The notes: generated from the letters alone by a model not told the origin. A DNA stretch of 62,495 nt, filler included, from Sphacelaria rigidula (GCA_964200075.2; 5 parts of 5 records of this genome joined end to end with filler, not necessarily neighbours in it), one strand, 5' to 3'. Shown: positions 12,422 through 56,720, counted from the whole stretch's first letter. Numbers and translations are program-made.

Positions 12422-12521
12422 NNNNNNNNNNNNNNNNNNNNNNNNNNNNNNNNNNNNNNNNNNNNTTAATTAATTAANNNNNNNNNNNNNNNNNNNNNNN
12501 NNNNNNNNNNNNNNNNNNNNN
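12422..12521. other. Assembly gap linker (N44-TTAATTAATTAA-N44); the same linker occurs at 24942-25041, 37461-37560 and 49979-50078
   Basis: Identical 100-nt structure four times, with stop codons in all six frames. Artificial. Confidence 0.97.
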
Positions 12522-23914: not shown

Positions 23915-25041
23915 ACCTACTTCCTCAAACACGGCAAAAGACTACTGCACGCCAAATGGCTCAATCATAACTGTATTTTTTTGCAACAAGCACCCATGTC
24001 CTTTGAGTGTTCTTCCACGCCTACAAAAGTCATCATCCTTCAGACTCTCGCGGGACCGTCAGCGCACGAAATCTCGAAACAGAAAGGATGAGCATTCAAT
24101 TCGTCAACCTACCTGTAGAACGCACGAGACGAGAAAATTGTTTTCATGTGCAAGAAGATGTGTTGCGCTTTTACTTTTCCTAATCGCGAGCAAGTGGATC
24201 GCGAATGATTGCCAGTTAATTCGCCGAATCACCCCCTCCCCGCAAACTGACGGAAAATGCAGACGGCGGGTTTCCTAGTGAACTGAAAAAAATTCCATGC
24301 TTGTTCAATGTCAAGTATTTCTGTGATCTGTCAGTCTGAGTGTGCATCTGAGACCGAAGTTTACCAATGGCGAAGGCACTAAGCAATGAGAACGATACTG
24401 CACACGCTGCGGGCCCCACGTAATATATTTCAACAAAGCTGTGGCCTTGCTCTTACCTGCTTCACTGTTGGTGAGGCGCAATTGAGCACTCGACTTACCC
24501 ACATCTCCAGGGTATCGGGAGGTACCATTTTGTCGCAGAAATAGAGTAACTGGCGGATTTGTCCACTTGCGACTTCAGAGCTAACAGCACGTAACGCGCT
24601 TCTGGGTCATGCGCTGTGCAGCTTTTTATTTCGCGAATTCCCTTAGCTGCAACGGTGGTCAGGTCTCATGGAATCGGGCCTATTTTTGTTCAGCTCACAA
24701 CGTTTTGATATTTCGACGCACACACACGTTATTCTCTCGCACATACTATATCGTTTATTTTACCAACCGCTCACCCAAGATACTATGATTCAAACCCTGG
24801 CTCGCTTCACTACTCTCGTGCCTAACCTCTATCCTGCAGTGGGGGGGGGGGGGGGGTTCTCATTTGTTGCTTGCCTTAGCTGTTTGACCAATGACCACGC
24901 ATCCCCCCCGAGACGGAGCACCGTTCCTACCCCTCACCGGGNNNNNNNNNNNNNNNNNNNNNNNNNNNNNNNNNNNNNNNNNNNNTTAATTAATTAANNN
25001 NNNNNNNNNNNNNNNNNNNNNNNNNNNNNNNNNNNNNNNNN

Positions 25042-28000
25042 GGCTCGAACCTCATTTCATTGATGAACCTCATTTTATAGAATCCTCTGTAATTTCCCCA
25101 GCGGGCCTGCACCCGGATACCAACAAATCCAGGGCAATGACTGAAATACCGATGCCCACAAATGTTTCTCAGCTTCGCTCACTGTTGGGTAGACTCTCCT
25201 ACTATCGCAAATGTTTGCCCAACTCGTCTACAAGGAGTCACCCCTTACACCCTTACTAAAAGAGGACGCCGCGTTCGTCTTCCCAACTGACATTGAAACT
25301 ATCGCTCGCGATTTGTTGAACACGCTCATGGAGAAAACGGCTGTCTGTTCTCCAAGCTGGTATACTGTACAAAATGGCTCTCACCTCTTCCCCCTGCGCA
25401 CCGACGCCAGCACCGGCGGGTTCGGCGCGGTTCTGAACCGACCCGAACTTGATGGCTCCGTCCGATCCATCCTTTGTATAAATCGCGCCCCATGCCACAC
25501 GAGGCCAACTCGAGTCCACTCGTGTTGGAAGGCGGGGTAATCACTTGGGTCATTGAGCGTTTTCCAATTTCACAAAATGAAGTTGGTTCCTGCTGTGGGT
25601 CAAAATTCGACCAAGAGGTTTTTCGCGACTCCGTTTTTGCGTCGGGATTCTTGCGTCCTGATTCTTGCGATCGGATCCTCGCGATATTTTTTTTGCGTCG
25701 GGATTCTTGCGATCGGAATGTTGCAATAATTGTTTTGCTAGATTTTTCCAGTCTAAAACCCTTATCGAATTCGATTTTTTGGGGATAATTTCCTTAAACG
25801 GACACGAAACGCATCCTTCTCCAAGGAGCACCTGGATACACAGGAGTTGCCGCTGCGTACCTAATATCATCCTCCAAATCGAAGTCTTGAGTGAGAACCC
25901 ACAGCGTTTGGTGCTCATGTACAAGGATTATGTACATCATACTCAAAATCGAGGTGACTGCACCACTTGGTAGTTGACATATATTTCTCGAAAATATATG
26001 GTTTGCGCAGGTGCTGACGCATTTCGAAGAACACTACCCCGACCCTAACCTTAACCCCAACCGCAACGAAGACATACCGAGAACCCTCGGGCACAGGGGG
26101 TGCGGCGTGTTCCTTAGGCGAAGTATGCGTTGCCAGACCTCAAATCGGCGCCCCAGGCGCAACGCGTTCTGCGCACGCTAGGAGCACGCTAGGAGCACGC
26201 TAGGAGTAGGGTAGTCCATCTGGATCACGCATACTTTTTTCAAGTGAATATTGATGCCGATTCAGCAGGTGACTTACCCTCGAAAGGGTTTAACGATTTC
26301 GGTGTCTACACTCGAATCTAATACTGTACCTGTCAACAAGCCGTAAGTTTCCGAGAACACTTGAACTACCAAGTGGTGAAGTCTACTGTCAAACTCGGAG
26401 TCAAAATCGAAGTCTTGAGTAAGAACGACTGCCAAGTATATCAGGTCCGAAGAGAAACTCTATGTCCCTTATCGATTCCGGATCTTTGGGGATAACTTCG
26501 TCATACAGACACCAAACGCATCCTGCTTCAAGGGGCACCTGGACACACAGCAGGTGCCGCTGTCTACTGAGTATGATCCTCCAAATCGAAGTCTTGACTG
26601 AGAACCCACAGCGTTTGGTGCTCATGTACAAGGAAGGATGATCTTCATCTAGTATCATGCTCCAAAACGTTCCTGACAAGGGGGCAACACCCCCGTACAG
26701 ACAGTAGCAATGCTAGCGGATCCTACGTCCTGAGAGTCTGTGGCAGTCTGGCAGCCGGAAAGGTGGTGATGGTAGTGTCCTTCTAGCGATGTCAACTTAC
26801 AGTGCGCTGTAGCAGAGTTTGCAGGTGAATATTTCGGCGATTGCGCCTCACCTACAGCTCGCCCAGATGCTGTGGATTTTTCTCGATATCACCGAGTAAC
26901 ATACCAGACTTTCCGTCATATGATAAGTCGAGATGTACCAGACCCTGCATTAAATATGGAAATGTACCCAACCGTGAACAAAATATTTCTACAGTCAGTA
27001 CGAACACGATGTTGAAAGTGCATCGCCCAAAGTCAGTGTGTTGTCGTCTCATCTATTCTGGACGCCCGTCTCCACCTTTCGGTGTATGTGGGCGCACCAG
27101 CCTCGACTGTATTACCATACAGCTTCGCCCAAGATACAGGCAGCCATTACAGCGGCGGAGGCTGCCTCTGACTCCTGCGTGGGCCACCTGGGGCAAGCAC
27201 ACGCTGTAGCTGCAACACGGACAGCTTTAAAAAATGTGACGTGGCGATATGCTGTAGCGCGTGGGGTGATATCCTTCCTGCCTACGCGTTTGCCATAGAT
27301 ACAAGCGGGTGCACTCATGGTGTGGCGAACTGCATAGGACAACGCGAAATCAATGTAGGACAGGGATGGGCAAAGGATGTCACGTGCTGCGGTGTGCTTT
27401 GTCACCCTGCACCCCACCGCTGTGCAGTGAGCAGGTAGTACCACTGCAGGCATCACGATGCGGTTGGTACACAGTAGTAGTGTCGGCTACACACCCGAAG
27501 GGTAACCTCTGTATTGAATTCAACAAAGCGCATTGAATTAAATCATACACGCGGAGAGCGTTATTTTCGAGCAGCGCGCGCGCTAACGTTTTCCGTGTTG
27601 TCGACATCGTGCCAGCGCGCTTATATACTGAAGCGCTGTATTTCTCTGTGGCAGCCCGTCACGGTAGTGCTCCCCATGTTTGATCACGCTTTATTCGAAA
27701 ACACTCAGAAGAGATGCCAGCGAGTCCATCGTTGTTGCACTTAAATTGTGGTGAACCAGTTGTTTCTCGATAGAACCCCCGCATGCTGCATGTTTTACCA
27801 AATAGTACATACCGTACCAGTTCATAACGGATATGCATTACATGTACGCCACCGACATGCTCTGGTTATCATGAACTGTGTACGAGGCGCGGGAAGCGTA
27901 GTTTTTGTCAAGGAATGCAAGGACGCAACCATACTGCAGTACAGGCAGTGTGAAACACGTGATTCGAACGAGACACAAGATGAAGAATTTACATTATGAT

Positions 28001-30720
28001 AAATACCTGGGCGTTTTGATACTAAAACGAGTCCACCAGTCCCTCCACTACCTGCTGTACAAAGGTAGCAAGGGTTGGACGAATCAATGATTTGTCCGGA
28101 AATCATTCGATTTTTAGTGTAATTGATTTGTACTGTACGAATCCATCCTTAGGCTTTGTTTTTAGCGTTGCAACCCAGGTACGCGCAGCCCAGGCACGTG
28201 GAATAGCGCAAAAGTTGCGTGGGGACCTGTTTGACCAGCGGTCGACCTTTTTCTCTCTTTCGAGCAATCAGGCCTAAGAAAGAGTGGATTTGGTTATTCG
28301 AGTCGGCGACGATTCGTCCGAACCGTAGAAGATAGATACCACATGTAAATTACACAATACGTTACGGGCAGACCTTTTCACCCTAGAGTGGAAGGGCCCA
28401 GCCAAGACCATTCCGGTTTCATCGCCGGAATCCGGGGCCGCAACGTCATATCACAATCACCGAAATAAATTGAAATTGGAAGCGCCCTGGACACAGGGCA
28501 ATCTATTCGACAAGCTTGTTTTACGTACCTTTGCACATTTACACGGGTCACGGAGCGGTCGAACGACTCGGTAAGGTTAGCAAACATACCACGCGTGTAC
28601 AACGCTGGTGGAGTCTCTGACGGCTTACCAGTATCCTGTTGAACATCGCCGAGGAAAAACCAACGGGAATGCTGACCTTATCTCCCGACTGCCCCTGCGG
28701 CCAACGGCAGTAAATTTCAGTCCAGCTTGCCGATTAGGTGAACCCGGTGAACCAAGCGTCTACCCTATCCGGCGTTTCTACACGCCCATTTACGCCCCTG
28801 ACCTTCATTGTTCAGAAACGGGTGTGTACATGGAGCCCCTCGCCCCCTTCCGTATGATGCAATCCTGGGTGGACTGAAGCTCACGACTGCCTATTTCGTC
28901 GATTTCCGCACTTTCGGTCCTCGTGCGGATATTTCCATCCCGCCACCCTCAGTTATTCACTTTATTTCTGACAGTATGTGCTCTAGGTCTGCTGCCCGCG
29001 CCAATCCCCCACGCACCCCGCCACCACCGACCACACCTACTGATCTCACGAGCGGTGTAGCGCCGGTCACAGGACACCAAACCACACCCCACGTCCCTCG
29101 TCAACACCCACCGCACCATGCGCACAACGAGCATCGATCACGCTCTCCGGCGCGCACTGTTACAACAAGGCCGATCTCCGCGGCACAGGCAGTACCCACC
29201 CCTCCTGATCATGAAGTGTACGCCTCGGGCCCTGATCCCAATGTGGATATTGACGTTGGCACCCCTGCTCCGTCGATTTTTCCACCGCGTTCTGCGCCCC
29301 ATGCTTGGTCGGCTCTCCCGCGGAAGGCTAACTGCACGAGTTCCTCGTCAGCTACTCCCATCGCGATTGGGCTCGTGAACAACAGGCGAAACCATTATGC
29401 CGCGCAGCCATGCGGTAATTACAACTTGGCTGCCTTATTCCTGTCCCGGCCAATCTTCTGACTTCGGTTGGTACACCACCACCACCAATCATCTCCGAGG
29501 TGTAGGAATTCGCGCGCAAAGGTATCATTTTCACCACTGATGACGGTGTTCAATTGCTTTTACATTGTCCCACCCCAGCCGGGTTCAACTTCGGCCGCGA
29601 TCACCAGCTGTCATGCACGCCTACTTGATGACGAACCCACCCGTATGTGTTCCATTCTCAATGCACCCCTGGGTAATGAAACGCTACCGCACTGACTTGT
29701 CATGTCACCTCGGTGTCACGCGCACCTGAGCACTACTTGAACCTTTTTACTGGTGGTTTGGCACGGAAGCCTCCACCCGTTTTTGGATTCGGCAATGCTT
29801 TAAGTGCCAAGGCCCCAAACCTCACGACAGACAATACGGTGGCTTGTCATATCTATGGCACTTTCCAACGCCCCTGTTCACCTCGTCGTGTCGTTTGACT
29901 ATTTCGATCCCTTACCGACCACGGATCGTGGCAACACCTACATGTTACTCTTCATCGACCGCTTCAGCCGCCATGAGTCCGTGCACAAAGTCACCGCTGG
30001 AGATTTCACAGCCGCAGCTACAGCTGACATCCGATGATAGTTCGCGCCTGCATTAAGCACTATAGTTGTCCGAAACGGCTCCCCTCCGACAATGGTCAGC
30101 AATTTTGCTCCGACCTCTCGGTCTGCCGGTTTCACACAATACGCGCTTAACAGCAACTCGACAAAGTCACCGCTTTATCAAGTTACCACCGATGACGCGA
30201 CCGAATAACCTTCCTGCTTGGCCGTGTCCCACATATCCGGTCACCAGATTACTCGCGGTCGAGGAGCTAAGACTGCTGTCATGTACAAGACCCGCTGGCA
30301 AGGCCTTCGGAGCGCGTCCTGGGAACGTGAATCCGACCTTCAGTTACACCACCGTGCTATCCTCCTCTACTGGATGCAACTCCAGCAGCAACATCTTGCT
30401 GTTAACAACAACAAATGCCGCAACATGCGCCGCGGTGCTGCAGCCTTCGAATTCTACCATGACAAAGGTTTGCGCTTTGTCGCCGGTGGTTACGTACTGG
30501 TACCCACCTATCATTGGGAAGACAAGATCCGCGCAAAACAGCGAGAGCTCCATAATAAGGTGCTCATTTGTGGTACAGAGGCAGCGACAACCTCTGGTGG
30601 CTGGGCCAGACCGACTCCGTCGACCTGATTGGGACCGATGCATACATCGTGAGTTTCATCGATGTCTCTGAATCCGCGCCACGAGGACCCTGGTGCCTTC
30701 AGCAGCTCAAGTCCCAAGGC
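25042..30720 (+). mobile_element. Degenerate Ty3/Gypsy pol remnant (RT thumb, RNase H, integrase, chromodomain), split by a 2.9-kb insertion
   Basis: QLRSLLGRLSYYR, LRTDASTGGFGAVL, NADLISRLP, CHLGV...FYWW...CFKCQ, SFDYFDPLP...FIDRFSRH and ISGHQITRGR...YKTRWQG...SWERESDL. Confidence 0.88.
25562..28505 (+). mobile_element. Non-autonomous Helentron/Helitron2-like element
   Basis: 5' TTCCAATTTCA (25562-25572) has its inverted copy at 28471-28481, followed by hairpin GCCCTG-GACA-CAGGGC and the element end. It sits in a T-run with no TSD, and removal rejoins the Gypsy RNase H. Confidence 0.7.
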
Positions 30721-31899
30721 CTTCGACGAGAAATTCAGCGCAATATAGATCGCACATATCATACCAACGCACCGTTTTGAGCTTTTGCTTAATCTTCTAC
30801 CTTTGGCTTGCAAAACGCACCTATTCCCCTCCTCCGTCGTTTTAGAAATTCGTCTGTTTTCGCTACTCGAGAAAAGAAATTTCCACGACTCCAACACTTA
30901 CAACAGCCTACGAACGGAGCTCATCCGCAGCACAGCAAGCGGACCACGAACGGAGTTTGCCTGGAGCATCTTCATCCACGGCTGCCGAAGTTTTTCGTAT
31001 TCCCGCTCTTGGCTTGTGTGGCTGGCGCTGGATGCTTTGAATCCTTGAATTGCTGATTCCCTTGCCTTTCTCGGTTTGGCCCAACATGCGCCCGCCGGAT
31101 GCAATTGGCCTTTTTGGTGGTTGAGTCTGGTATCACCCAGGTAGAAGTTGTGCTCCCTGCTATACCTTGCTGGTTCGCCTCTTTCTTCCGCTAGCGTGTC
31201 GAAGAATTTGTGCCCCGTCGTTTGGGCGTTCGCTAGCTAGTAGTAGTAGTAGTTTGTGCTCCTGCGTATCCAAGCGCAACTGCGCTTTTTGAAGCGGATT
31301 ATGCTACCCTTGTTCGAGGTGTAAGAGGATCAGGCAAAAGGGTTGGGCATGGCTCTACTGGTGGGTGTGCTTTTTCCTGTCACTAGGATCGGGTGTTTCC
31401 CCATCCCTTTTCATCTTCTGGTTCGCCTTTCTTGCCACTCATGAGTTCACGAGAGAAGACACGCTTCAATGTTTGTTGCTTTTCGAGCTTACTCATCGCA
31501 GCTATAATAGAGACTCGCCTGGGCGGGCTAGTGTCATGAAGTGGAGAGGCGGTTGCAGCACCTCCTTCCCAGACGCGTAGATCAGGTGGTGGGTTGTGCA
31601 GATTCAGGGTTTTTCAGAAGAAATATCGTCACCGGAGATTTTTTGATCTCGGGTCTGACCAGTAGACAGATCGGATAATGCCCCCTAGTCCCGAGAGCGG
31701 TAACGCCTTGCTTGTGGATAGAGGTCTTGGCGAGCCAGCCCTCCCACCTCCATTCACTCCTTAGCTAGGACCTTCGTCTGGTTGCAATCGCTGCTTGCAA
31801 TTTGGTAAACATGAGTGCGAGCTACGAACGAAGGTAATCAAGCTACAAACAATTGAGAACGATCTTCCTCTCATCAATAGGCACACATACCTACCGCGT

Positions 31900-32660
31900 A
31901 AACTTGAAACGATGAAGGAAAATCAGAGCGGCTCAGATACATATTGGTTGTCGACCAAAGCAATTGAGGACTGCGTCGTTCAAATACACAGGAGAGTGTA
32001 CCCCTTATTGTCCCAATCGTACCTGTCCGATCCCTTTCCATTCCGGCATCAACTATACCTACGCTTTCCAACAGCTCGGACAATTTCACTGCATTTTTGT
32101 TCATCTCTTCTTTTAAGTTGTGCATTTTTTCTTCCATTTGTAGTTTATCGGTTCTCCAACTGTACAACTTCCTACCCCGCCTATTCCTTCTAGCTCTCAT
32201 CTGTTGGCTTCTTATCCATATTAGGCAATGATCTGTGTTTCCCACGTCCTCTGCGCATATATATGCTTTCATTTTCTTCCTGTTTCCATACTCAACCACT
32301 CAATGATCAGGAACGGAGCGTTCCCTCTCGTTTTGAATTTTCTACTCCATGGCCATCGCGTCTCTAGCTTTCGTGCTCTATCGTTCATCGTCTTCATCTC
32401 GCTATGCTCGAGGACCTTGAGCATTTCTACCCCATCCGTGTTCTCCTTATCTTCCGCGTAATGCCCAATGATACAACCAGGTTGACCTGCTCTTCCTACC
32501 CTTGCATTCAAATCTCCTACAAACGTTACTTCTTCGGGCTATGTCCCTTCCGCTTTTCCCCTATCCATGCGTACTCTCAAACTTTGCATCCTATCTCCGC
32601 CCCCTCTTCCTGCCGCTGTAAAACAAGCCGCCAGAACCCAGACATAAAAGTTACAGACTG
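31900..32660 (-). pseudogene. Non-LTR retrotransposon (LINE) apurinic-type endonuclease fragment
   Basis: VGDLNARVG (32497-32520), then EMKTMNDR, ERSVPDH and VGNTDHCLI, matching the GDFNA, IDY and SDH motifs of APE-type endonucleases. Confidence 0.75.
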
Positions 32661-32899
32661 TCACCGTACCTGCACCATGAACCGCCACTAGACAAAACAA
32701 ATCCCGGGCCGACAAACGCAATGGCTATGCAAAAAACTAAATGACGAACTATGTTCCCCCCAGAAACACACAAGATGGGTATAAACATCATATGACAGAG
32801 GTGGTATTTTTTACCTCCCGCCCCTCCCCCCCCCGGCGTGGGGGGGTATGGGGGAGTAGAGAAAACCTGATGAATCACCCATTCAAAAATAGTATGACC

Positions 32900-35800
32900 C
32901 CTCACGTATCCGACCGTTGGCTCCCACGTGGAGATTGCACTGAGCGCGTCGTTAGCCCGGACGTACGACTCGTATGCGTCCGATTTCCATCTACCCTCTT
33001 TTTTCAACACCTCTGGAGACACTCCTGCTACCGACAAGTGGGTGGCGCCACCAATCCGCAAAGAGTGCAACGCGAACTCTGCGGGCAGGAGCCCAGCCAA
33101 CGCCACCACTTGCCGTAGCGCTGCCACAACATCATATCGATTCTACACCATTTATTTCCCGGAGTCCCGCATACCATACGTCATAAGCGGGGCCTCGGCG
33201 GGGTACGAATTCGAAAGAGGCATTACTTCAGTCATCAGCGCGACTGCTCCTTCCCTTACTAGAAATGCCAACGCAGGACCCCTCGCAAACGTGCGTTACT
33301 ACTATTCCGACACGTTACTGATCCCCTTTGGGAGCTCGGAATCGCACTTCTACCCGTTCTGCTGTACCCCACTCAAGTCGACGCAACTACGTTCGTCCCT
33401 TAAAAAAAGACACATCCCTTCTACGCAGATAGTAAAGTGGATGATACGAATGAACGGAATCCGCAAACATCTTGAAAGACTTCGTCAGAGAGAAAAAGGA
33501 GGCACACAAGCCCAGCCACAGCACACGGTCACCTGGACCCCATCCAAGCGACAGACGTTCCCCGTCCATAAGCACTGACAACGCCACCGGACGTCTGACC
33601 CGCTGTTATGATCCCATCACAGCGTGACTATACTTCAATCCCAATAATGAATTTCTAGCATTTCTAATCAACGAGTGTTGAATGTCCAAGTCGACAGCTC
33701 TCTCCGTTCGATGGAAATATGCCACGGCAGCTGAATGATTTGCCACGGTGTTCAACCGCAACCCTTTCTTTGCACACGCATAACTTGTGTATTCAATGAA
33801 TGGCCACACGTTATGTATCGCCTCATCACGGCTACTCGAAAACACGACTCGGTTCATCTCCCGCCGGAAATTAATCCAGGAACCAAATTGTCCCTCGTAA
33901 GTTCTCGCAGACGACGGCGCAATGGCATTTCGGACGAGCCCGCGGCCAAAATGCATGAACACAGATGCCTCCCTTCTGTCCCGATGTCCTGCATATGCAA
34001 TTGAACATCGGGACGGCGGGACAAGAGGTTAGCGGAGATACGAATGATTGGCCATTGGGAAATACTATCAGCAACATCTTTCAGAATTCCCGGCACGTGC
34101 TTCGCCTCAAACACCCTTCCCGACGCTATTTCCAACACGCCAAGCATACGCATCAGAGCGCCCGATCGCGGCTCACTCCCCCCTGTGCACTTATTTACCC
34201 GAGTCACGGCGGCTGAACTCTCTCCACGTAGCAGCACGCAATCAGCGCCACGTAACAAATATCACCCACCCCGACATGACCATACCCAACAATTCCAGGA
34301 CATTGATGGAGATGTTCTCTCCCGAGTGCACCGTATCACCTTTAAACTGAAAACGTTCCTCATCGCACAAGTCATACCGCCACCACAGGCCCGACTGCAG
34401 ACAATATCCACCAACCGCAGCACCCGATGCGTCGGAAAAGAAAGAAATCGTGGGTGGGCGCAACACAAACCGGTATACCGGGGACGATAATACTGCTCCA
34501 TCCCGCGACAAACCGTCACTAACCAGCCAACGCCACACATCTAAATCATCGTGAAACTCCGAGCTCAAACGCACCACTGGCAACTTCGTCGCCGCCCTCT
34601 TTTGAAAATAATTCCCCGTCACCACACGGGACGATGGGGGGGCGGCGCACTCCCGCCGATGCGAGCATGCGATGTACAAAACCTTCCCCGGACGCAAAAC
34701 GTAGGAGACGTGTAGCAGGAAACCGGTCAAAGGCGAAATGTCTCTCACTGTTGCACCCTTGCGGTCCTGAGGTCATTGCAACACCAGCTTTTACAGTTTT
34801 GTGATTTTTGCCTTTGAAAACGAGATCGACAGTGAGTCAGTACCAATCATCCATCCCGGCGCTTCCCACCGGGTGTCCCACGCCGACATTTTGTCGGTGT
34901 CTAACAACGGGGGGTCATCCGCCCCCCTCTCACTCAGTAAGTGATAATGATCTGATATCAAGGAGCCCGACGCGCACAAACATCGCTTGCCGTCAGGAAA
35001 TTATTGTACTTTCACCAATATACTGTCGTCAACGCAAATTCACATACAAAAGGGGTCGCCCGCCCCGCCACCAACTCCCGGAACGGTCTTGCAGTCCGGG
35101 GGCAGAGTTGCAACGCCTTCCTGTTGGCGTGATGCCATCTTGATAGGCTGAGCATCACGACGGCCGACATCCGTCACCGCGTATGTGAATTGATGTGTGG
35201 TTGTGCTAGTGTTCCAAGGCCACCGCTAGCAAGCCTTAAAGGTCGGGACTGCTGCGCCAACCGAATTCCACACACAGGTCAACGACCGCCATACTACCAA
35301 ACACGTACCCGAAATAAACGGCACGTCTTGCTGGGTCCACCAACACTTGACGAAATCCCTCCTTGACATCAAGTTTGCTCAGCACAATGCGGGCCGTGGG
35401 GTCAAATTTCTGTCGCAGGAACAAAAGCCGCATCAGAACTTAACGCAGCACCCCACCGATGTCACACGGCGGTGCCTGGAAAAAATCGGCCTCCGCATCA
35501 ACACAGGTGTGCGGCATTCGACGGTGGGGGGGAGTGAGATAATGTATGATACGAAATTTGGGATGCGCCGCCACCCCAAGTGGGGAAACACGAAATAATT
35601 TAATATCGAAGATCCGTCTCACGTCCAATACCAGTGCGCAACCGTTCATAACATCCAGGCGCAGTTGTTCATATATACGGTCCTGGTGCTCATCCACCCC
35701 ACCATGATTCCCATAGTTAATCACATTAACCAAATAACAGCCGATTTTATATTTCGGGCTTCAACACTAAAGTGGGGTTGAAGTCCCATTTCTCTATTGC

Positions 35801-36340
35801 AAGGAAGATACGAAAGAGTAACACAGAGCGAAAGTATCTTCCTCCCCAAACCTCCGCAGCAGGAGTTAACCTTTAGACCGCGAAAGTAGATCACCTGCTG
35901 AATCGGCATCAACAGTCACTTGAAAAAAGTACACGTGGTTCAGATGGACTACCGGCACCGCGGTCCAAGGGTTGAGCAACTCTGGCTAGATGCACCCAAC
36001 GAATGCGGCGTACACGCGTGTCGATGACGGTATCACCAGAGAGAGAAGCANNNNNNNNNNGGCGATTACCACTATCGCTCGAGAGACTCGCATCATCGAT
36101 GTCATCAGCATGTACCCAATTTCCCATGTATGTTGTGCCTGAACGCCGAGAGCTGCGGAGAGATTTCGTCTCTTCTTGCTTGCTTGATGCGAAGATCAAT
36201 TTCTCTCTGCCTCTCTTTTTGGACAAGACGTGCGTCTGTGCACTGAAAAACACGTCGTTGAAAAACAGGGCAATGTTCCCGTCACCGCTACTACTGCTCT
36301 CTGTCACACACATGCCAGCGAGGACGGTGCTGCGGCAATA
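32900..36340 (-). mobile_element. Second degenerate tyrosine-recombinase retrotransposon (RT, RNase H, YR); ends approximate
   Basis: SKLDVKEGFRQV, EFGWRSSP, CVDD (~35030), FSDASGAAVGGYC, INVLELLGMV, KHVPGILKDVADSISQW and ALHSLRIGGAT...EGRWKSDAYESYVR. Confidence 0.9.
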
Positions 36341-37460: not shown

Positions 37461-39446
37461 NNNNNNNNNNNNNNNNNNNNNNNNNNNNNNNNNNNNNNNN
37501 NNNNTTAATTAATTAANNNNNNNNNNNNNNNNNNNNNNNNNNNNNNNNNNNNNNNNNNNNATTTTAGCACACGAATCTTTGTTCAGCGGCCAATCCCGAA
37601 ACCTCGGAGCTAAGCGAATCTGAAAAGTGTGCTAGGCTCCTCTCCGTGGGGTGATGCAAAGTGTCTAGAATGTGTGTTGGCGATTTTCCCTGTCCGGGGG
37701 TCATGAAGGAGATCAAATGTACCAAAGGTGAACAATCCGTGGGCCGAAAATCTGTTTGCCATAACATCCGGCCTGATGGTCTACTCTGGCGGTGGGAAGT
37801 AGATCTTTGGTCTCATGTGGACGACGAACGGACATGTCGTGCACTTGTGAACGTTGGGAAAGGAGTGGGACGTGAAGTGCTTCCCCTTCTCGTGTCGGCA
37901 CACAAGTTTCCTGTGGATGCGTTCACATGCAGCCTGACGTCACGCGGGGTTTGGTCACAGATGTGCAACTGCCGACTCGCTGATACCGCTGGTTATGGTC
38001 ATGGTTGCAGTTCTAGTTCTACTTGAATGAATGAGCGCCCATGTTTTCGGTCGCAAGGCTTTGTAGACCGTTATTGAGTACCCCCCGTGTAATCTTCCCG
38101 GCGTCGTTTAGATCGTAACTCGAGGTTTCTTCACCCAAACTCCTCGTACACTAAAGCCTTCTGTTGACAAATCGGCGCACCCGCAATAGATTCCCGTTAC
38201 ATCGATGTATCTGATACTTGATTCACGTATACTTTATACAGCTCCGCCTACTGTACCCGCGTAACAGCTGCTGATTGAGGATAAGATCGGCACTCTCTCG
38301 CCAGTCAGTCGTTTTTTTCTTGGATGGTTATCTTGTGCACACTGACGTATATCATGGCGTAGCAGCATGACCGCGAGGATGAGACACCACGCGGCGGTTT
38401 ATGCGTTAGAGATTACTTTTCCCCCACGAAACTCTCGAGAAAACATGGTGTGCGAGTAATGACAGAAAATAGAGGGGATTAGAGCGATGACAGCACAAAT
38501 ATGACTTACTTCGTTTCATCTTGTGCGAATGCTGCGGCTGTCGACGGAGCAGGTGTCCATGTAAGCCAGTACCGCCTCATCGCTGTGCCCATTCTGTGCG
38601 CACTGTATGGCATATCAGAGTAGAAACACCTTTGTACGAGCTTTTGTTGTGGTTGTTTGAATAGGGAAAGTATTCCGTTGTTCGGTTCGTGCAGTATTTG
38701 CCTGTATTGTGCAAAAAATGGCTTCTGGGGAATATGCACGGTAGCCCGCGAGGTGCACCAAATTTTGTTGTATGGGTCTCGTAAATACAAGATGTGGTCA
38801 CGAAGCGTTCACACACGGAAGCGTACGTCTTGGCTGGTGCTCTTCCGTGCAGCGCAGCGCGAGGCGAGCGTGCCGTGTGTCGTACTTGTTTTGTTTTTTG
38901 CGTCATAGTTACAGTACCAGCGCTGACGTGCCGCAGCGTTTTGAATGTGTTGGATCGGCATTACTTTCACTGGGGAAATTAACGTGAGACGCAGATGCCG
39001 CCCACCCTGGCGGTCCCAGGGATGAAACTGACAACCGGGTCGCGTGATCACCGTACCCTTTTTTCTCACGAATCGAATTTTTGTTTTAGTCTTCTTCACA
39101 CCTTGGGCAATATATACTCGATAGTTGCAATAGAAAAAAAACGTACTTCATGAAGTATAGGTCTAATGCGACTATTGTCGGCCGACAACAGTTACAACAG
39201 GCCTATACTTTGTGCAGTGTACTCCTCGTCTATTGCATTTATTGACCATATATTGTCCAGGGTGTGGTACCTTGTGAAGCACGACGTGGTATATAATGTA
39301 GTTTAAATCCCAGCATGGCATCCTGAGTGTAAAACCTGACATGAGCGTATTCTAAGAAACCCCCGGTTCGCTATTTTTGTTCCTCGTACTTGTGCCTATA
39401 CCTGGATCGTGGCACACATGCTTGCGTACTGTGAACAACCCCGCAG

Positions 39447-46001: not shown

Positions 46002-46075
46002 GTGCGTTATCTTCGCTTCACTCACTCGGGGAAGGACAAAAGCGTTGCAGAATGAGTAAAATCTAGAAACGCGGT

Positions 46076-46115
<40 letters not shown>

Positions 46116-46196
46116 GGGAAAGAGAACGAAAAAAAGAAAAAAAAAAAAAAGAAGAGAGTTTTGGTGGGATTTGGGGGGGAAGGGGGGGGGGGGGGG

Positions 46197-46241
<45 letters not shown>

Positions 46242-46850
46242 GGGTTGAGGAGTACGGGGACAGGGACAAGCAGCCAAAACGTGAAAATATGAAGAACGAC
46301 TGAGTTGTCGTTGTGACATGGGTCAGATGTACTGGCGGAACTGTACAGCTTAGACGCGTTTTTTTTCCAGGTTGTTGATATTCATCGGATGACGCATTTG
46401 TTAATATTTTTTTGTGGAATTCGTATCAACCTTGTTGGCTAAGGCGGGAAGGGGGGGTACTCATTCGTTGCTTGCCTTGGTCTTTTCACCAATGACGCAC
46501 GCATCTCTCGCGAGACGGAGCACTAGGCAGGAGGGGGAAGTGGGCATGATTCCACGTCGTTCATATGGCGTCTGTGTAAACGCTGGTTGTCCGGCACCCC
46601 GTTTCTTTGTCTTGGATGTGAAGTTAATGCACAAGCGTGATTCACCTGACATCACATGGAATGGTGAGAAATCCCGAAGCCCAAACAGCACGTTAACGGC
46701 TGACGTGGGTTGCCTGAACAGTTGGCAACAGCCGTCTATTTCCTGTTTGTTTTTTCATTTGCGTATACAGCGCAAGTGTTGGTGACGTGTGTCCAGTATC
46801 GTGTGCCGAACGCTCGTTGCTGATGATACTTATTTTGTTCCGCAAAACAG

Positions 46851-49652: not shown

Positions 49653-50078
49653 AATTATTTGAAGTGCTTCTGTCATTTTAGTCACAACGATTCATTTCAT
49701 CCGTACGAATTGTAGTGTTGTGTACTAGTGGTACCCACCATACATGCGGATAAATGTTTATCTGTTGGCAAGTTTGGGTAATGAACAGTAAATACATGGT
49801 TGGCTGTTTAATGTATGGTTGTGGTGGACGGGACGGAATGGGGTGGGATGTGTTTTTCGTTCGGGCGGGCGGGCGGGGGGGGGGGGGGGGGGGGGGGAAA
49901 GGAGCAAAAAAAGAAAAAAAGGGTGAGGACTGGGAGGGGGGGACTAAAAAAAAAAATGGAGGGGGGGGTGTAGGTCTGNNNNNNNNNNNNNNNNNNNNNN
50001 NNNNNNNNNNNNNNNNNNNNNNTTAATTAATTAANNNNNNNNNNNNNNNNNNNNNNNNNNNNNNNNNNNNNNNNNNNN

Positions 50079-53000
50079 CATCGAGAACGCCTTCTATTCA
50101 AGCGACTAATATCCGCCGTCACATTTACCCAAATACAGGCGCACCGCGAGTGTGTTGGATCGTCTGACGCACCCATGAGCCCATTTTTTCGTGGAATCGA
50201 ACACCCCTCCCATATCGTAGCATGACTCCCCTGATGTAGCAAGCGCACGTGAACTCCAAGGAAGAGATTGCGTGTGGGCTCAGACAGATGAAAACCTTAG
50301 AGTGGAACAGGTCGGTACTCCCCAGATTTCGAACAGATCGTTACTGCTCCCTGACCATCCCTCGTGCACTGCGTTAGAACCCATTTCCGATGAAGAGTTG
50401 CCGTCTGTAGGGACAGACACTTACGCCGACTAATGGATGTTCGCATCCTAGTCATGAAGGCACCTCAATCGCGTGTTCGTCACCAGGCAGACAAAGTGTT
50501 ACGCAAGACGACTCGTCTCCTAACTCGCCCACGTTGGCCCCTTTAATAGACGCCGGGTTGAACAGCACAGCTCTACCAACCCCGCGTCCTGACGAATCGT
50601 CTCCAAAACCTCCCATGTTGGCCCTAACTAGTGATGGTATTAAGTTGATTGGCGTATCAAACTCAACACCGCGCCCCGATGAATCGTCCCCTGTTCCGAC
50701 AAAGCTGGATAATGTAGTTGATTCTGCTTTGCACAATGACGATTCGCCCCCTCTGTTGGCCAATAAGGGTGAAACACCACGCACAGATCAGGTGTCGGGT
50801 CCAACCACGACAACTGCATCTCCCCGGCATCGCCCCTGCGTTGCAGTATATGAGATTCAACCCTCAGCTGATGAGACAAATATTCCAGGCACAAACACTG
50901 ACACTCCATGCACGCACCATCCTTCCGACCAAAAGTTTGTCCCACAGGATCATAAACGGGTGTCTTTTAGCACCTTTGTTCAAAACGCAAAGCAGGATGT
51001 GTCAGATGTCTTACCCGAATTCGGGCCCGATCTCGTCAGTAGTACTGCAACTATGGACGATGCTTTTTTACGACCAAGATAGGTTTACGTAGTTGAGCGC
51101 GTGCAAACTGTTATTTGATAGCTCTTGCACTACCAGACTCTGGTTCACCTCAAATGTTCATTACAACGAGCTGCTGGCAACAGTGCGGCGGACGAGCACT
51201 CTCTGTTCACCGTGCGCCCTCGTGTTTTTGGTGGGTTTGGTTCCTCCACATCTCTTACGGTCAATCAATCGGTGAGACTAAGTGTACAACTTTACCAGGA
51301 TACTACTTCCACTTCTCGGTTGTCCGTATGGGCACTAATAGTGCCCGACGGTTCCATGTCTTTTGACGTTTTGTTGAGTCGAGATAGTTGGCTTTGTTTT
51401 TCCACACACACGTACACGACAAACACACCTGTTCCGAACCATCCAGTCACAGGAAAATTGTCACTGGGTCACTTCGACATTGATTCGGGAGGTCATACTT
51501 ATGAGGATGACCCCACGCAAACAGGTAATGCTTTCCGTCTGTACTATGCTGGTGAACCTGTGGTCTCGCTTTCTCGTGAATCCCAACTTATCCAAGTGAA
51601 CCTCGTGAGACGCAAAGGATCGCCCGCCCTCACAGGACATTATTTGGTCGAATTGCTCAAACCTGACCAAGCACAGGTTGGTCCGTTTGAACAGACCGAA
51701 GTCTTTGTCCACGAAGGTAGGCAGGCCATTTACCTCACGTCCCCTGCATGTTTCGATATACTCAACGGTCAGTTGTTGGGTTATGCTCAAGCGCCTCTCC
51801 TACGAACCGCCCTGTCAGATGTGTGCCCCCCGGCGAACAACAACTCGCCGACCGACACCCCGAAATCCACGGGCCCCCCTCCGCTACACATGCCTGACCC
51901 CATGGTGGTGACAAATCCACCGGGTGCGCCTGATCCTCAACCCCCAACTGCATTACTGGATAGATTTTCTCCAGAACATCGCGCCAATTTTCAAAAGATG
52001 TGGGATGATATTCCCCCTCACTTACGGCATATTGTTTTCGATCTATCTGGCGATGGTTGTACACCCACTGTAATTGATGGGTTGCAATCCATCTTGATTA
52101 GATATTCTGAACGGTCTTCAACTGCACCCTTGGATTTGGGTCGATGTACCACGACATCGTTCACGATCAAGATTCCTGATGGCACTCCTCCTATCGCTAT
52201 GTGTCCGTACCGTACGAACCCCCTCTTAGCAGATAAGACCTAGGTGATTCTCGATGGTTACTTATCTGCCGCTTTAATTCGGCACTCGACATCTCCGTGG
52301 GCCTCGCCTTTAGTAGTCGTTCGTAAGAAGAATGGCAAAATCAGACTGGCGGTCAATTATCAACGATTGAACGCTGCCACCAAAATCGCCCGGCTTCCAC
52401 TTCCGCGGATTGATGAAATAATTGACTCTCTTGGCGGGGGTTAAGTATTTTCGAACTTGGACATGCAGTCCGGCTACCACCAGCTCGTGATGGATCCAAA
52501 TTCAATCGAACTGACAGCGTTGTGCACGCCATCAGGTTTACACGACTGGCTGGTTACACCACAAGTTGCCGCCGGAGCTCCAGGTGCGTTTCAAAGTGTG
52601 ATGTTCCGTGTAACTGATGGATTGCCCAAATGCCATACGTACCTTGACGGTGCGGTGTGCCACGACTCCACACCGGCCGAACACGTCGAACAGTTGGCAT
52701 CATTCTTCAATCGGTTTGAAGAACACAACCTGAAACTCGCACCCTCCAAATCCCGTATTGGCGCCACAAAGATTGAGTTCTTGGGTCATTGCATCACCCC
52801 CGAAGGTCGTAGCACAAAACAAGGTCGCCGCACTCTCCGATATGCCCATGCCACGGGATATTCTCAACTGCGTTCCTTGTTGGGAGGTCTAAGCTACTAC
52901 AGACAGTATTTGCCTAACCTTGCCCAAACGCTAAAACCCCTCACCACCTTCCTAAAAAAGAGGTGAAATTTGTGTTCACATTGGAAATGGAAAAAACCGT

Positions 53001-56000
53001 CTGTCGCCTTCTTGACACCCTTTCGCGCCCGCCGATTCTCGTCTTCCCCGACTGGTCGGCCGCGGAGCAGGGTTCCCGCCTTTTCCGGCTCCACACAGAT
53101 TCTTCCAAAATTGGGTTTGGCTGCACATTAGGACAGGAGCAAGTCGATGCTACCGTTCGTCCCATTGTCTATCTGAGTCGCACCACTTTCCCGATTGAAC
53201 AGAATTGGTCTGTCATGGAACAAGAGGCCGACAGTTTCTACGATAGCCCCCCCCAAAAAAGTGCATGGTTTTGGGAGGAAATATTCGCACGTAAATCGAA
53301 AAGGGAAAAGCCGAGCACAACGAGAAGCTGGGAATTCCCACGCTTGGGTTCGTTTCAGCCAATGTCGTCAATATGAGGCGCTTCATGCAGGCGCTTCATG
53401 CAGGCGCTTCATGCAGCCTAAACCCGAACATCAGGCGCTATATGGCCATTTTTTTCGTGGCACTTTTAGCTGGTTTTTTGGGGGGGGCTATCGTAGCTTT
53501 TGTCGGCCGGCGCAGTTGTTTGGGGCGTGCAGCGTCTACGTCAGTATTTGTAATACACTCCGTTTGTGATTTGTACCGATCATAAGTCTTTGGAAAGCCT
53601 TGTCAAAATGACGGAACATAACGCTAGGGTCCAACGCTGGTTCGAAATCCTGTCGTCTTACAAATATAAACTGAAGTACCGCACAGGTCCCCAGAATGCA
53701 AACGCCGACTTTCTATCACGCTTGCCCACGCCAGCTCAACCTATCGATGAATCCCCCATGGGACGTATCACCGATTCCACCGAAGACATTGTATACTTCA
53801 TGAGCAGGAATGGACATCGAGGTCTCTACACACCACTTTCACTCAGAGAAACGCCGGCTTTAGGCATGGGTGGGCTTACGACCACGGTCCACGCCTCACT
53901 TCTAGGTAGCTTGCAACCTCAATCGTTGTACTCAGTTTGGAATGGACTGTCTACGAATAATGTTGGCTTTGATAATTTTCGTGCAACTGGCCAGCGCATG
54001 GTTTTCGCAGCAGGTGTAGAACCGTCCTTTGCTGACTCCGTCTTACCAGTTCAAGTTCGAGATTTGATTTCGAAAAGGACTCGTAGACGGCGAACCGCCG
54101 AAACGGCCACCAAATTAGCTGTATCTGATCTTGACCTTCCCCTCCCTGCCCCCACCCCGGTCCCCGATAGTTTCCTTGCGCCCCCGCAGCCTCCGCGACG
54201 CAAGGCCCCTCGAACATCGACCCCGACCGTGCCGCCCCTACCGATCATAGCCGAAACCACGGCTGTGCCCCCCTCCCTTGGTGATGATATTGCAAACACC
54301 ACCACAACGCCCTCCACGCTAATCGACGCAGAAGTAGACGTTAACGTTCCGTCTGAGAGTACACCGACTGGTAGGCTCACCCTTGATTCCGAAATCACCG
54401 CTTCGGGCCAACCCCACCCCGAACCGGCCCAATACGAAGTAGACGCTTCAACAGATGGTGTACTCAAGGAAGATTCGACTCTCTTCTCCCACGCCGATCG
54501 GGCCCGGGAACAACAGGCAGAACCTGCTTGTAAATCAGCTATCCATTATCTATCCAAAGGTTGCCCATGTCCATTCTCAGAAATCGAATTCCTTTTGCCA
54601 GTCGAGACTCTCAAGGCGCCCACACAGGATGAAGTTACTGAACTTTCAAGAAAAGGTATGCTACATACGGATGATGATGGTATAGTTCTGTTAGTTCGCC
54701 GGCCCGCAGCAGCCCTCCCCAGGGGGAAGCCTACAAATCGACAAGCCCGCTTGCTAGGTGATGAACCCATCCGCATCTATGCCTCGATGTTCCTGCGCCC
54801 ATGGGTTCTACACGAATGCCATTCACAGGCATCGATCGACTCATTAAGGCACCATTAGGACCTCCGAGATCTTGGAACGTGATTATTGGTGGATTTGTAT
54901 GGATCAGTGTTGTCGATGGTGGGTGAGGCGTTGTCTTTTGTGTCAGGCGCGAAAAACTTATCGTCAAACAGTTCGTTGGCCGATTGTCTCCATGCCACTC
55001 CCAAACGGACCTGGTGAAGTAGTTTCGTGGGACTATTTTGATCCTTTGCCCCTGACGGATAGTGGAAATAAGCATATTTTGTCGTTTACGAATAGATTTA
55101 GCCGACATGCGGTGATGCACGCCTTCCCCCCCAGTAGTTATACCGCGGAAGGTACCGCCAACATTCTTGTCTACATGTACATCCCGCAGTGGGGTGTGCC
55201 CAAACGCTTACTGTCTGACAACGGCCCGCATTTTTCAGGCAAACTTTCAGCCGCCGTCAGTGACCTTTTGGGTACCCATCGCACTTTTGCTAGTTCATAT
55301 CACCCTTTCACCAATGGTGGAACGGAACGAGTGAACCATACGATGACACAGATGCTTGCTGCTGTAGCAAATGAGAGACAGATGGACTGGGACCTGCATC
55401 TGCCCCTTGTCCAAGTGAACTACAACAATTTAGTCAATGCCGCTACGGGATTGTCGCCGAATGAAATTCATATTGGACGCATGCCTAGGTCACCTTTAAC
55501 GGTATTCGAACGCAAGAATACAGGCGGACATCAGAGTCTAGATCGGTCAGCAATCGCCTTCGTCTTGCATATAAAGTGGTACGAGAACAGAACCAAATCA
55601 ACTTGGCCACGGTGGCCAGGGCGATTTCGATGTTGGATGATGTGGTACATAACCGCCCGGTGTGGAAGGTAAGCCAATGGGCATGGGTGTATAACGATGT
55701 GAAGACTATCAATCAAGGGGCTAGCTCGAAATCATCATATTTGGACAAAGTGTTGAAGGCGAAACTATCCCTGAATTGGACTGGTCCTTGGGATATTTTA
55801 GCTTTTGGTCCAAGCGCTACCGCACTCGACAAGAGTCCGGTGGGAGCGAAACATTTGTATTTTTATCATCCCACGGATGAACCTGGTTTGAAACCGAAGA
55901 TCCGCGTCTCGATGCTGCGATGCAAACCGTGTATCCCCTCTCATGACTCCTCTGACATGCCCAAACAACTGCCGGTAGGGCTTGGTCAGTATGTGTTGAC

Positions 56001-56720
56001 CACGTATGCGGTCGAAACTCCGCCGTATCATATGACGGTCGAGGATGCGGACGCACCCCTGGAACGCGTTGAGGTAGATAAAATTTCGGGCCACCACCTG
56101 GTTCGCGGTCGTGGAGGTAAGATAGCGGTAATGTATCAAACACATTGGAAGGGTATCATGCGTGTTACATGGGAGCGTGAGGTTGATTCGCGTCATTTTC
56201 GTCGGGAGATATTGCTGTACTGGGTAGAAGATACCGTCCAACACCGCCCGTTGAATAAGAGATATCGGTCGATGCGCAAGGGAGCTGCCGCTCGGGAACT
56301 GGCACGAAAACACTCAGCGCGGTTTGTTGTGACAGGATATAGCCTTCTTTCGCGTTCACAATACATGCAGTGTTTTCACGGAAAACGATTGCCGAAAGGG
56401 GCGTACTTTCGGTATAAGGCCTTGGATTCCCTCTGGTGGTTGGGTAAAATTCATTTGGTCGATCCTGCATCTGACCACTTCTACTTATCCGTTTCCTTGA
56501 TGATCCGAGTCCTCTTAAGATTCGCTTGGATGATGCGTACTACACCGAGGTGCCGACCGCTCGGAGGGATCCTGGTGCCTTCAACGACACGACCAAGTCG
56601 ATTTCGACACAGCCGCTCTATGAAACACGGACACCGCTTGGGATGCAGATGACTCATGATGCATCCGAGTCTGCTTCCCCATTCACCTTGCGTAGAGTAC
56701 CACGTTCGAGTCGCTTGTCG
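50079..56720 (+). mobile_element. Ty3/Gypsy (chromovirus-like) pol pseudogene: protease, RT, RNase H, integrase, chromodomain; LTRs not identified
   Basis: ALPDSGS and FDVLLSRD (protease); SPWASPLVVVRKKNG, DMQSGYHQ, YLDG (RT); LHTDSS, TDHKSL, NADFLSR (RNase H); DYWW...CLLCQ, SWDYF, LSDNG, GTERVN, WTGPW (integrase); VDKISGH...YQTHWKG...TWERE (chromodomain). Confidence 0.95.
53230..53504 (+). mobile_element. MITE inserted in the Gypsy RNase H, 4-bp TSD GGCC
   Basis: TIRs with CTACGATAGCCCCCC core. GGCC at 53226-53229 and 53505-53508. Excision restores E-Q-E-A-G-A-V-V-W. Confidence 0.92.

Follow-up and report, generated by a model that had tools for sequence, protein, structure and literature searches.

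A chromodomain and a probable Tudor-like barrel in tandem at the integrase C-terminus of a brown-algal Ty3/Gypsy lineage

What stands behind the chromodomain of a decayed Ty3/Gypsy retrotransposon in Sphacelaria rigidula, and what might it do for the element? The window analyzed here, a stretch of 62,495 nucleotides from assembly GCA_964200075.2 in which parts of five records are joined end to end with filler, holds two broken copies of the element's pol gene, whose chromodomains lie near 56 kb (copy 1) and 30 kb (copy 2). A first-pass annotation, made from the sequence alone, had proposed that the integrase of these copies carries a second module of the Tudor/Royal family after its chromodomain. 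In our analysis, the C-terminal tail of Pol, about 190 residues long, probably comprises a chromodomain, followed by a long basic helix and then by a barrel of five strands, of the Tudor/Royal type, that ends in SWCLQxH, and probably serves in chromatin tethering. A brown-algal Ty3/Gypsy lineage would carry this fixed three-part tail after an otherwise ordinary integrase (zinc finger, rve core, and GPY/F-like region); the tail would tether the integration complex to chromatin and may bias the landing sites of new copies, as integrase chromodomains do in chromoviruses. We infer the tethering and targeting role by analogy. The coordinates of all features are collected in Table 1.

Intact relatives of the element show that the tail is conserved well beyond the two copies in the window. 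A word-indexed search of longer proteins with the 332-residue frame-A product of copy 1 as query (3162 candidates) returned 20 relatives with 42-56% identity over 88-99% of the query. Each of the 20 has the chromodomain and at least the first part of the module, and the whole tail could be followed to a C-terminal [GAC]SWxL[QR] strand in 18; in the two exceptions, P0022 and P0023, unrelated sequence takes over part-way through the tail. Twelve tails were aligned (alignment A1), with that of P0004, the closest intact relative, as the first row. Fifty-three columns of this alignment are invariant, and they include W117, W125, W126, L127, G128, Y141, R144, D147, P149, G150, P151, the run S171-W-C-L-Q175, and H177. 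Mean pairwise identity is 69% for the chromodomain, 53% for the linker helix, 58% for barrel strands 1-4, and 67% for strand 5, the least conserved part being the pre-barrel stretch at 37%; the barrel is nearly as conserved as the chromodomain. Its retention in intact relatives marks the tail as a part of the element under selection.

A search of 1.84 billion cluster representatives with the A1 profile gave 843 matches at E ≤ 0.001, of which 509 had E ≤ 1e-10 and 90 had E ≤ 1e-30; the best 150 are mostly short open reading frames (ORFs) that represent element fragments. Both window copies are broken exactly at the module and all of its family-level scores are sub-threshold, and this is what could be said for dismissing it as a chance or decay artefact, i.e., junk that follows the chromodomain in two dead copies and forms no domain at all. 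Such a dismissal is hardly credible and is already contradicted by the conservation in intact relatives and the 843 profile matches: intact ORFs elsewhere keep the tail with its invariant residues at 42-57% overall identity, and two independent alignments (A1 and a second one, A2, described below) yield confident models. The module is therefore beyond chance, being kept by intact relatives and matched 843 times by its profile.

These intact natural relatives, rather than a frameshift-corrected consensus, served as the reference for the reading frames of copy 1. Frame A runs through the basic stretch to LPKGAYFRYKALDSLWWLGKIHLVDPASDHFY and ends at 56484, and frame C reads GSWCLQRHDQVDFDTAAL from 56567. 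The three frame pieces are in register with the intact relatives, and since each break costs precisely one column of the alignment, both are -1 shifts. The frameshifted second module that the first-pass annotation had placed after the chromodomain at 56 kb is confirmed; with two -1 corrections, the sequence from chromodomain to stop codon is read over 56062-56623 on the plus strand. Copy 1 has also suffered a substitution within the barrel, where R replaces the tryptophan W117 that is invariant in all 12 aligned relatives (YFRYK versus YFWYK).

The second, divergent copy that had been reported near 30571-30710 was likewise recovered, slightly shifted and more decayed than copy 1. Fifteen columns of the module alignment, corresponding to the DPGPxKIxLxxxxYT stretch of strand 4, are absent from it, and the two copies are identical in 39% of the tail (66 of 168 columns). 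The element around it is heavily deleted, with pieces detected by tblastn at 25089-25489 and 28516-30750. Copy 2 is split by approximately 3 kb (25489-28516) without a match to the relatives, lying between its reverse transcriptase (RT)/RNase H pieces, and it lacks about 250 integrase residues; this interruption probably reflects a nested insertion together with a deletion. Both copies in the window are dead, copy 1 through its two -1 frameshifts and the W-to-R replacement in the barrel, and copy 2 through its deletions.

We next consider the fold of the tail. The AlphaFold2 model of the whole tail (model mb0cc18d0c0ff, built from A1) has a mean predicted local distance difference test (pLDDT) of 81.7 and a predicted template modelling (pTM) score of 0.72. 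In this model, three strands and a helix (residues 5-55) lead into the long helix at 63-83; a short strand and helix come next, then four strands within 115-155, and SWCLQ forms the fifth strand at 172-177. The first part is predicted to have the three-stranded sheet packed by a C-terminal helix that defines a chromodomain, and structural alignment of the P0004 whole-tail model with VIA-align against Foldseek's best 1000 chains matched residues 1-60 to chromodomains and chromoshadow domains (Z 8.2-9.4, root-mean-square deviation (rmsd) 1.1-3.8 A, 49-60 residues). In a Foldseek search of PDB with the whole tail, the MPP8 chromodomain and the Tudor domains of PHF19, PHF1, and MTF2 came out on top (E about 0.025-0.1, probability 1.0, template modelling (TM) score on the target 0.63-0.71). 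At the level of sequence families, Pfam Chromo was found in 8 of the 12 tails with a best E of 9e-4, under the cut-off (the P0004 tail scored 17 bits versus a cut-off of 25.1), and it gave no match in window copy 1.

Because the VIA list of the whole tail was filled by chromodomain matches, the barrel was modelled alone. For this we used alignment A2, which consists of 16 whole short proteins that start in the linker helix and were taken from the matches of the A1 profile. The resulting AlphaFold2 model (m668620796291; pLDDT 83.7, pTM 0.74) has strands as in the whole-tail model, at 45-49, 55-63, 71-76, 82-86, and 103-108, and is predicted to form a five-stranded antiparallel SH3-like barrel. 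Foldseek with the barrel alone placed the PHF1 and PHF19 Tudor domains first (E 0.04-0.1, probability 1.0, TM score on the target 0.60-0.66, rmsd 1.8-2.3 A over 47-50 columns, 30-32% identity), the superposition on PHF1 having an rmsd of 1.8 A over 47 columns; this combination of AlphaFold and Foldseek, which the first-pass annotation had put forward as a check, returned a five-stranded barrel with PHF1/PHF19 Tudor at the head of the list. A wide VIA search of 48,161 representative chains returned none at Z of at least 8 and 33 at Z of at least 5, and among its best 50 rows 36 belong to barrels of the Royal family (Tudor, chromo-barrel, PWWP, Agenet, MBT, SAWADEE, or Spindlin). In the VIA alignment with PHF19, 56 of 57 residues were matched at an rmsd of 2.4 A and 27% identity, model residues 39-110 corresponding to chain residues 39-94. 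This span includes SWCLQ, and the RG[SP]WCLQ motif that had been noticed after the module is accordingly strand 5 of the barrel itself and not a separate element. The PHF19 Tudor domain was also the best PDB profile match with both profiles (E 0.025 and 0.018).

The closest solved relatives in sequence and fold, the Tudor domains of the PCL proteins PHF1, PHF19, and MTF2, share with the tail the five-stranded barrel, a strand 2 of the form DGL[YW][YW]LGKI, and the F-x-D of strand 3. They differ in that PHF1 has four cage aromatics where two are found here, and the tail has an additional N-terminal helix, strand, and helix as well as a long loop before strand 5.

Several points weigh against this reading and are best considered together. 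No score for the barrel is significant, as Pfam matches remain under gathering scores, PDB profile matches have E 0.018-0.025, and Foldseek matches have E 0.04-0.1. The VIA Z scores of the barrel, at 5-7, are in a range that the tool rates as middling, and the top three rows of the wide search are a bacterial TraI domain (Z 6.2-6.8). The models are themselves predictions from shallow alignments of 12 and 16 rows, and both window copies are inactive. The two cages are also incomplete: the barrel keeps just two of the four PHF1-type cage aromatics (the equivalents of Y47 and F65), and the chromodomain keeps one of three, namely the middle position W29 in all 12 tails, with L, V, or I at the first position in all 12 and I or L at the third in 11 (F in the remaining one). 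Other families also matched at low scores: Pfam Agenet was found in 5 of the 12 tails (best E 0.004) and in 1 of the 16 sequences of A2, PWWP in 1 of 12 and 1 of 16, all under their cut-offs, and SH3-like Pfam families gave sub-threshold matches in a few tails. ESM Atlas look-alikes of P0062 fell into KIF2A N-terminal, Spin/Ssty, Agenet, and Tudor-knot clusters, all with scores below 0.9, and serve as leads only; Foldseek against the predicted viral structures of BFVD matched the barrel just to uncharacterised proteins at poor rmsd. A complex prediction between the chromodomain (A1 1-60) and the linker plus barrel (61-185), run without controls, gave a score of 0.10 and a mark of 0.34, which speaks neither for nor against packing of the two halves. 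Taken together, the Tudor-like fold is supported by several weak lines in agreement and by confident predicted models, none of which is individually significant. What stands of the Tudor/Royal module first proposed is hence a separate SH3-like barrel whose nearest solved folds are Tudor domains, all at sub-threshold scores; its function as a reader, with one of three and two of four cage aromatics in place, stays at the level of a proposal.

The composition of the cages bears directly on the ligand. The PHF1 cage consists of W41, Y47, F65, and F71, with D67 and S69, and Y80 of PHF19 corresponds to F71 (PMC7492083). MTF2, with S at the F71 position and three of the four aromatics, already binds weakly (PMC7492083). 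We transferred the PHF1 positions to the 12 tails through a HMMER alignment. The W41 equivalent is G, A, or S in the 12 tails, the Y47 equivalent is W126 in all 12, the F65 equivalent is F145 in 10 and L in 2, the F71 equivalent is P151 in all 12, and the D67 equivalent is D147 in all 12. For the chromodomain, we compared cage positions with those of the MPP8 and Swi6 chromodomains. Judged from these residues, classical trimethyl-lysine reading is not supported for either half of the tail, although other invariant aromatics of the barrel (W117, Y118, W125, and Y141) might add to binding. With neither cage complete, a classical trimethyl-lysine may not be what the tail binds. Candidates would include a lower state of methylation, the surface of an unmodified histone or nucleosome, DNA, and some protein of chromatin.

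The same observation lends weight to the main rival of a chromatin-reading barrel, as a tail with incomplete cages could equally well bind DNA, the surface of an unmodified nucleosome, or a protein of chromatin. The barrel might be a real additional domain that reads no histone mark and instead binds RNA or DNA (of the target or the virus) or multimerises integrase, much as retroviral integrases use their SH3-like C-terminal domain, or as Tudor and PWWP barrels that bind DNA do, in which case any contact with chromatin would be made by the chromodomain. Two of the four cage aromatics of the barrel are missing, one being replaced by an invariant proline; a strongly basic helix precedes the barrel; SH3-like, KOW, and PWWP-single-stranded DNA entries lie within 1 Z of the Tudor entries in the wide VIA search; and DNA binding by a Tudor domain has been reported (PMC13285377). 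We regard this alternative as possible but rather doubtful, since the closest solved sequence relatives of the barrel are the histone-reading Tudor domains of PCL proteins, whose signature of DGL[WY][WY]LGKI and F-x-D it retains, and chains of the Rous sarcoma virus integrase appear in Foldseek solely at rmsd above 15 A. Moreover, an ordinary integrase C-terminal region is already present upstream, at 55777-55800. The motif there, WTGPWDIL, is GPY/F-like and matched no Pfam family in the scan. With this region lying upstream of the chromodomain, the Tudor-like barrel is an extra domain and not the usual SH3-like domain of integrases.

A more specific form of the chromatin-tethering reading is unlikely in our estimation, but is worth stating. 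Chromodomain and barrel would act together as a bipartite reader. It would have evolved in hosts without H3K27 and DNA methylation, where H3K9 methylation is rarely detected, and would steer integration by a brown-alga-specific signature, e.g., H3K36me3, H4K20me, H3K79me2, or an unmodified nucleosome surface. LEDGF/p75 tethers the integrase of human immunodeficiency virus 1 (HIV-1) to H3K36me3 chromatin through its PWWP domain. In both systems a Royal-family barrel would link integrase to chromatin; the difference is that the reader of LEDGF is a host protein acting in trans, whereas here it is fused in cis. As background to such a signature, brown algae have no DNA methylation and H3K9 methylation is rarely detected in them; their active chromatin is marked by H3K36me3, H3K4me3, and H3K9ac, and their repressed chromatin by H3K79me2 and H4K20me3 (PMC13076208).

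We also asked where the barrel came from. Brown algae lack PRC2 and H3K27 methylation (PMC13076208), which makes an origin from a host PCL protein unlikely. Among longer proteins, the barrel profile had 45 matches, all of them retrotransposon Pol proteins or fragments save P0052, a probable chimeric gene model, and no host gene that might have donated the barrel was seen among these 45. In P0052 (EukProt Nemacystus decipiens g3980.t1), the linker and barrel of the retrotransposon are fused to TIMP and WSC domains; it is most likely a chimeric prediction across an element fragment, with domestication as a possible alternative. A separate observation on the tail concerns H11 (invariant) and H28 (11 of 12) of the chromodomain and C173 and H177 of the SWCLQxH strand, which are its only conserved metal-type ligands in A1; going by the alignment, they could possibly form a zinc site that bridges both domains.

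To which lineage does the element belong, and is its tail new? The relatives with named hosts come from two brown algae, Nemacystus decipiens (P0019 and P0052) and Ectocarpus sp. CCAP 1310/34 (P0198, P0208, and P0214). When five long relatives were scanned, two carried an N-terminal NADAR domain (P0026, E 3.6e-48; P0033, E 5.5e-38), while the other three begin at or after the protease. P0026 and P0033 are 90%-identity cluster mates of P0013, whose cluster has 197 members, and the Ectocarpus proteins P0198 and P0208 have NADAR in precomputed Pfam annotation along with the module at their end. The presence of NADAR in the Pol of these four proteins reproduces a published Ectocarpus observation and extends it to further ENA records.

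Four Gypsy lineages have been described in Ectocarpus (Genome Biol 2025; PMC12477816). Three have putative C-terminal chromodomains, one of these being ECR-1, and are phylogenetically unrelated to chromoviruses or Chronos; lineage IV, exemplified by Gypsy-12_Ec32, combines the chromodomain with an N-terminal NADAR. The remaining one, Gypsy-10_Ec32, has a C-terminal Tudor domain, according to its authors the first transposable element reported with one, and has a homologue in Tribonema minus (PMC12477816). The relatives of the window element appear to fit the NADAR-plus-chromodomain lineage of the Gypsy-12_Ec32 type, compared by its description and by the domains found in sequence. Both are brown-algal Ty3/Gypsy elements with a putative chromodomain on the integrase C-terminus, and NADAR occurs in relatives of the window element, three of those relatives being Ectocarpus proteins; they differ in that the excerpts of PMC12477816 describe only the chromodomain of this lineage and mention no second barrel, and in that no NADAR was detected in the window copy, whose 5' part is missing or masked.

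The Tudor domain of Gypsy-10_Ec32 raises the question of whether the barrel is simply the one already published, and so nothing new. PMC12477816 does report a C-terminal Tudor in a brown-algal Gypsy, with its Tribonema minus homologue, and in both cases the Pol of a brown-algal Gypsy ends in a Tudor barrel of the Royal family with a presumed role in chromatin targeting. We consider such identity very unlikely. The same paper separates the three chromodomain lineages from the single Tudor lineage, with Gypsy-12_Ec32 as its example of chromodomain plus NADAR, and the relatives of the window element carry NADAR (P0026, P0033, P0198, and P0208) and a chromodomain, unlike the Tudor-only lineage. 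In its description, Gypsy-10_Ec32 is a separate lineage without a chromodomain, of 11.5 kb with 636-bp long terminal repeats (LTRs) (PMC12477816), whereas the barrel in the window follows a chromodomain; the two are set apart by description.

The centromeric element ECR-1 was considered as the family of the window element and rejected, as it has all three cage aromatics, a single ORF of 1699 amino acids, and no NADAR in the excerpted description (PMC11541908). ECR-1 and the group I chromodomains have all three cage aromatics, where the chromodomain of our tail has one (PMC11541908). More broadly, the tail resembles those of chromoviruses and other chromo-integrases (MAGGY, Tf1, and ECR-1), in which the integrase is immediately followed by a chromodomain, an arrangement known to bias integration (PMC12477816; PMC11541908); integrase chromodomains were established as targeting devices by Gao et al. 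(2008), as cited in both papers. No second reader barrel is described in any of these elements, and a full-text literature search found no description of a chromo-Tudor tandem on an integrase. The tandem of a chromodomain and a Tudor-like barrel thus looks like an unreported variant. The novelty originally claimed would extend to the tandem, which we did not find described, but is reduced by the Tudor (in another lineage) and the chromodomain (apparently in this lineage) that PMC12477816 already contains.

The remainder of copy 1 is that of a decayed pol (Table 1). Pfam matched RT_RNaseH, Integrase_H2C2, and rve, with scores at or slightly below their cut-offs. A repeat search of the window found no direct repeat pair that could represent the LTRs of copy 1, and the ends of the element are therefore undefined. 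Its 5' side meets N runs at 49979-50078, and tblastn detected no NADAR in the window, the 5' part of copy 1 being missing or masked by these runs. Pairs of 44-base N runs, 12 bases apart, recur every ~12.5 kb (12422-12521, 24942-25041, 37461-37560, and 49979-50078; there is a further run at 36051-36060), and such even spacing suggests masking or scaffolding rather than biology. Copy 1 is cut on its 5' side by one of these pairs, and another adjoins the RT piece of copy 2. Long poly-G tracts with A-rich flanks occur at 46064-46281 and 49849-49929, with translations that look like poly-proline or poly-glycine. Elsewhere in the window, the ORF at 6227-7246 (+) resembles a retroelement RT (YVDD), the one at 32651-33142 (-) the C-terminus of a tyrosine recombinase (HSLRIGGAT...GRW...Y), and the one at 34242-34772 (-) an RNase H-like piece. 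These would fit DIRS/Ngaro-type elements, which are abundant in Ectocarpus (PMC12477816); a Pfam scan of the other ORFs of the window, including the RT-like (6227-7243) and recombinase-like (32654-33142) ones, gave nothing at E ≤ 0.01.

Table 1. Features of the two Ty3/Gypsy copies in the window, in whole-window coordinates.
Feature	Position	Strand	Reading	Basis
Decayed Ty3/Gypsy pol, copy 1 (protease/RT/RNase H/integrase/tail)	50795-56623	+	several frames	tblastn with P0026 and P0011; ORF list; Pfam
Integrase zinc-binding domain H2C2	54848-54958	+		Pfam PF17921, E 1.8e-5, 25.2 bits versus cut-off 25.5
Integrase catalytic core rve	55004-55306	+		Pfam PF00665, E 2.9e-7, 31.1 bits versus cut-off 32.6
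Presumed GPY/F-like motif, ordinary integrase C-terminal region	55777-55800	+	WTGPWDIL	sequence
Chromodomain, copy 1 (three strands and helix, cage-deficient)	56062-56223	+	frame A, in frame with 55489; ERVEVDKISGHH...ILLYW	translation
Basic linker (long helix in models)	56254-56313	+	NKRYRSMRKGAAARELARKH	helix 63-83 of whole-tail model
Pre-barrel strand and short helix	56317-56388	+		strand 93-95 and helix 98-104 in whole-tail model
Tudor-like barrel, strands 1-2 and start of strand 3	56389-56484	+	frame A; LPKGAYFRYK...SLWWLGKI...DHFY	profile alignment to residues 39-77 of the PHF19 Tudor
Break 1 (two surplus bases, -1 frameshift, one unreadable residue)	56485-56486	+		translation, alignment
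Barrel strands 3-4 and loop	56487-56564	+	frame B; IRFLDDPSPLKIRLDDAYYTEVPTAR	translation, alignment
Break 2 (two surplus bases, -1 frameshift)	56565-56566	+		translation, alignment
Barrel strand 5 (56567-56590), short tail, stop codon (56621-56623)	56567-56623	+	frame C; GSWCLQRH	model strands 172-177 and 103-108
Chromodomain, copy 2	30209-30370	+		translation; Pfam Chromo E 0.0098, under cut-off
Tudor-like barrel remnant, copy 2	30559-30702	+	other frame, one frameshift from chromodomain; GAHLWYRGSDNLWWLGQTDSVDLIGTDAYIVSFIDVSESAPRGPWCLQQ	translation, alignment

Integrase-fused readers are the clearest natural cases of retroelements that choose their landing sites, and what the chromodomain Gypsy elements of brown algae bind is a question raised by the Ectocarpus papers themselves, given the unusual chromatin of these hosts. 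If the reading favored here is true, a second conserved barrel behind a cage-deficient chromodomain would mean that the published annotation of this lineage is incomplete, and the barrel would be a concrete candidate for the part that contacts chromatin. The gain for transposon biology overall would be incremental, as fusions to a chromodomain are a classic case and one to a Tudor domain appeared in print in 2025. Should the less likely two-part reader prove true, the tail would be to these elements, fused in cis by nature, what LEDGF/p75 is to its integrase as a tether, and would offer a ready-made probe of brown-algal chromatin states. The targeting idea is directly testable with the existing Ectocarpus genome and chromatin immunoprecipitation sequencing (ChIP-seq) data.

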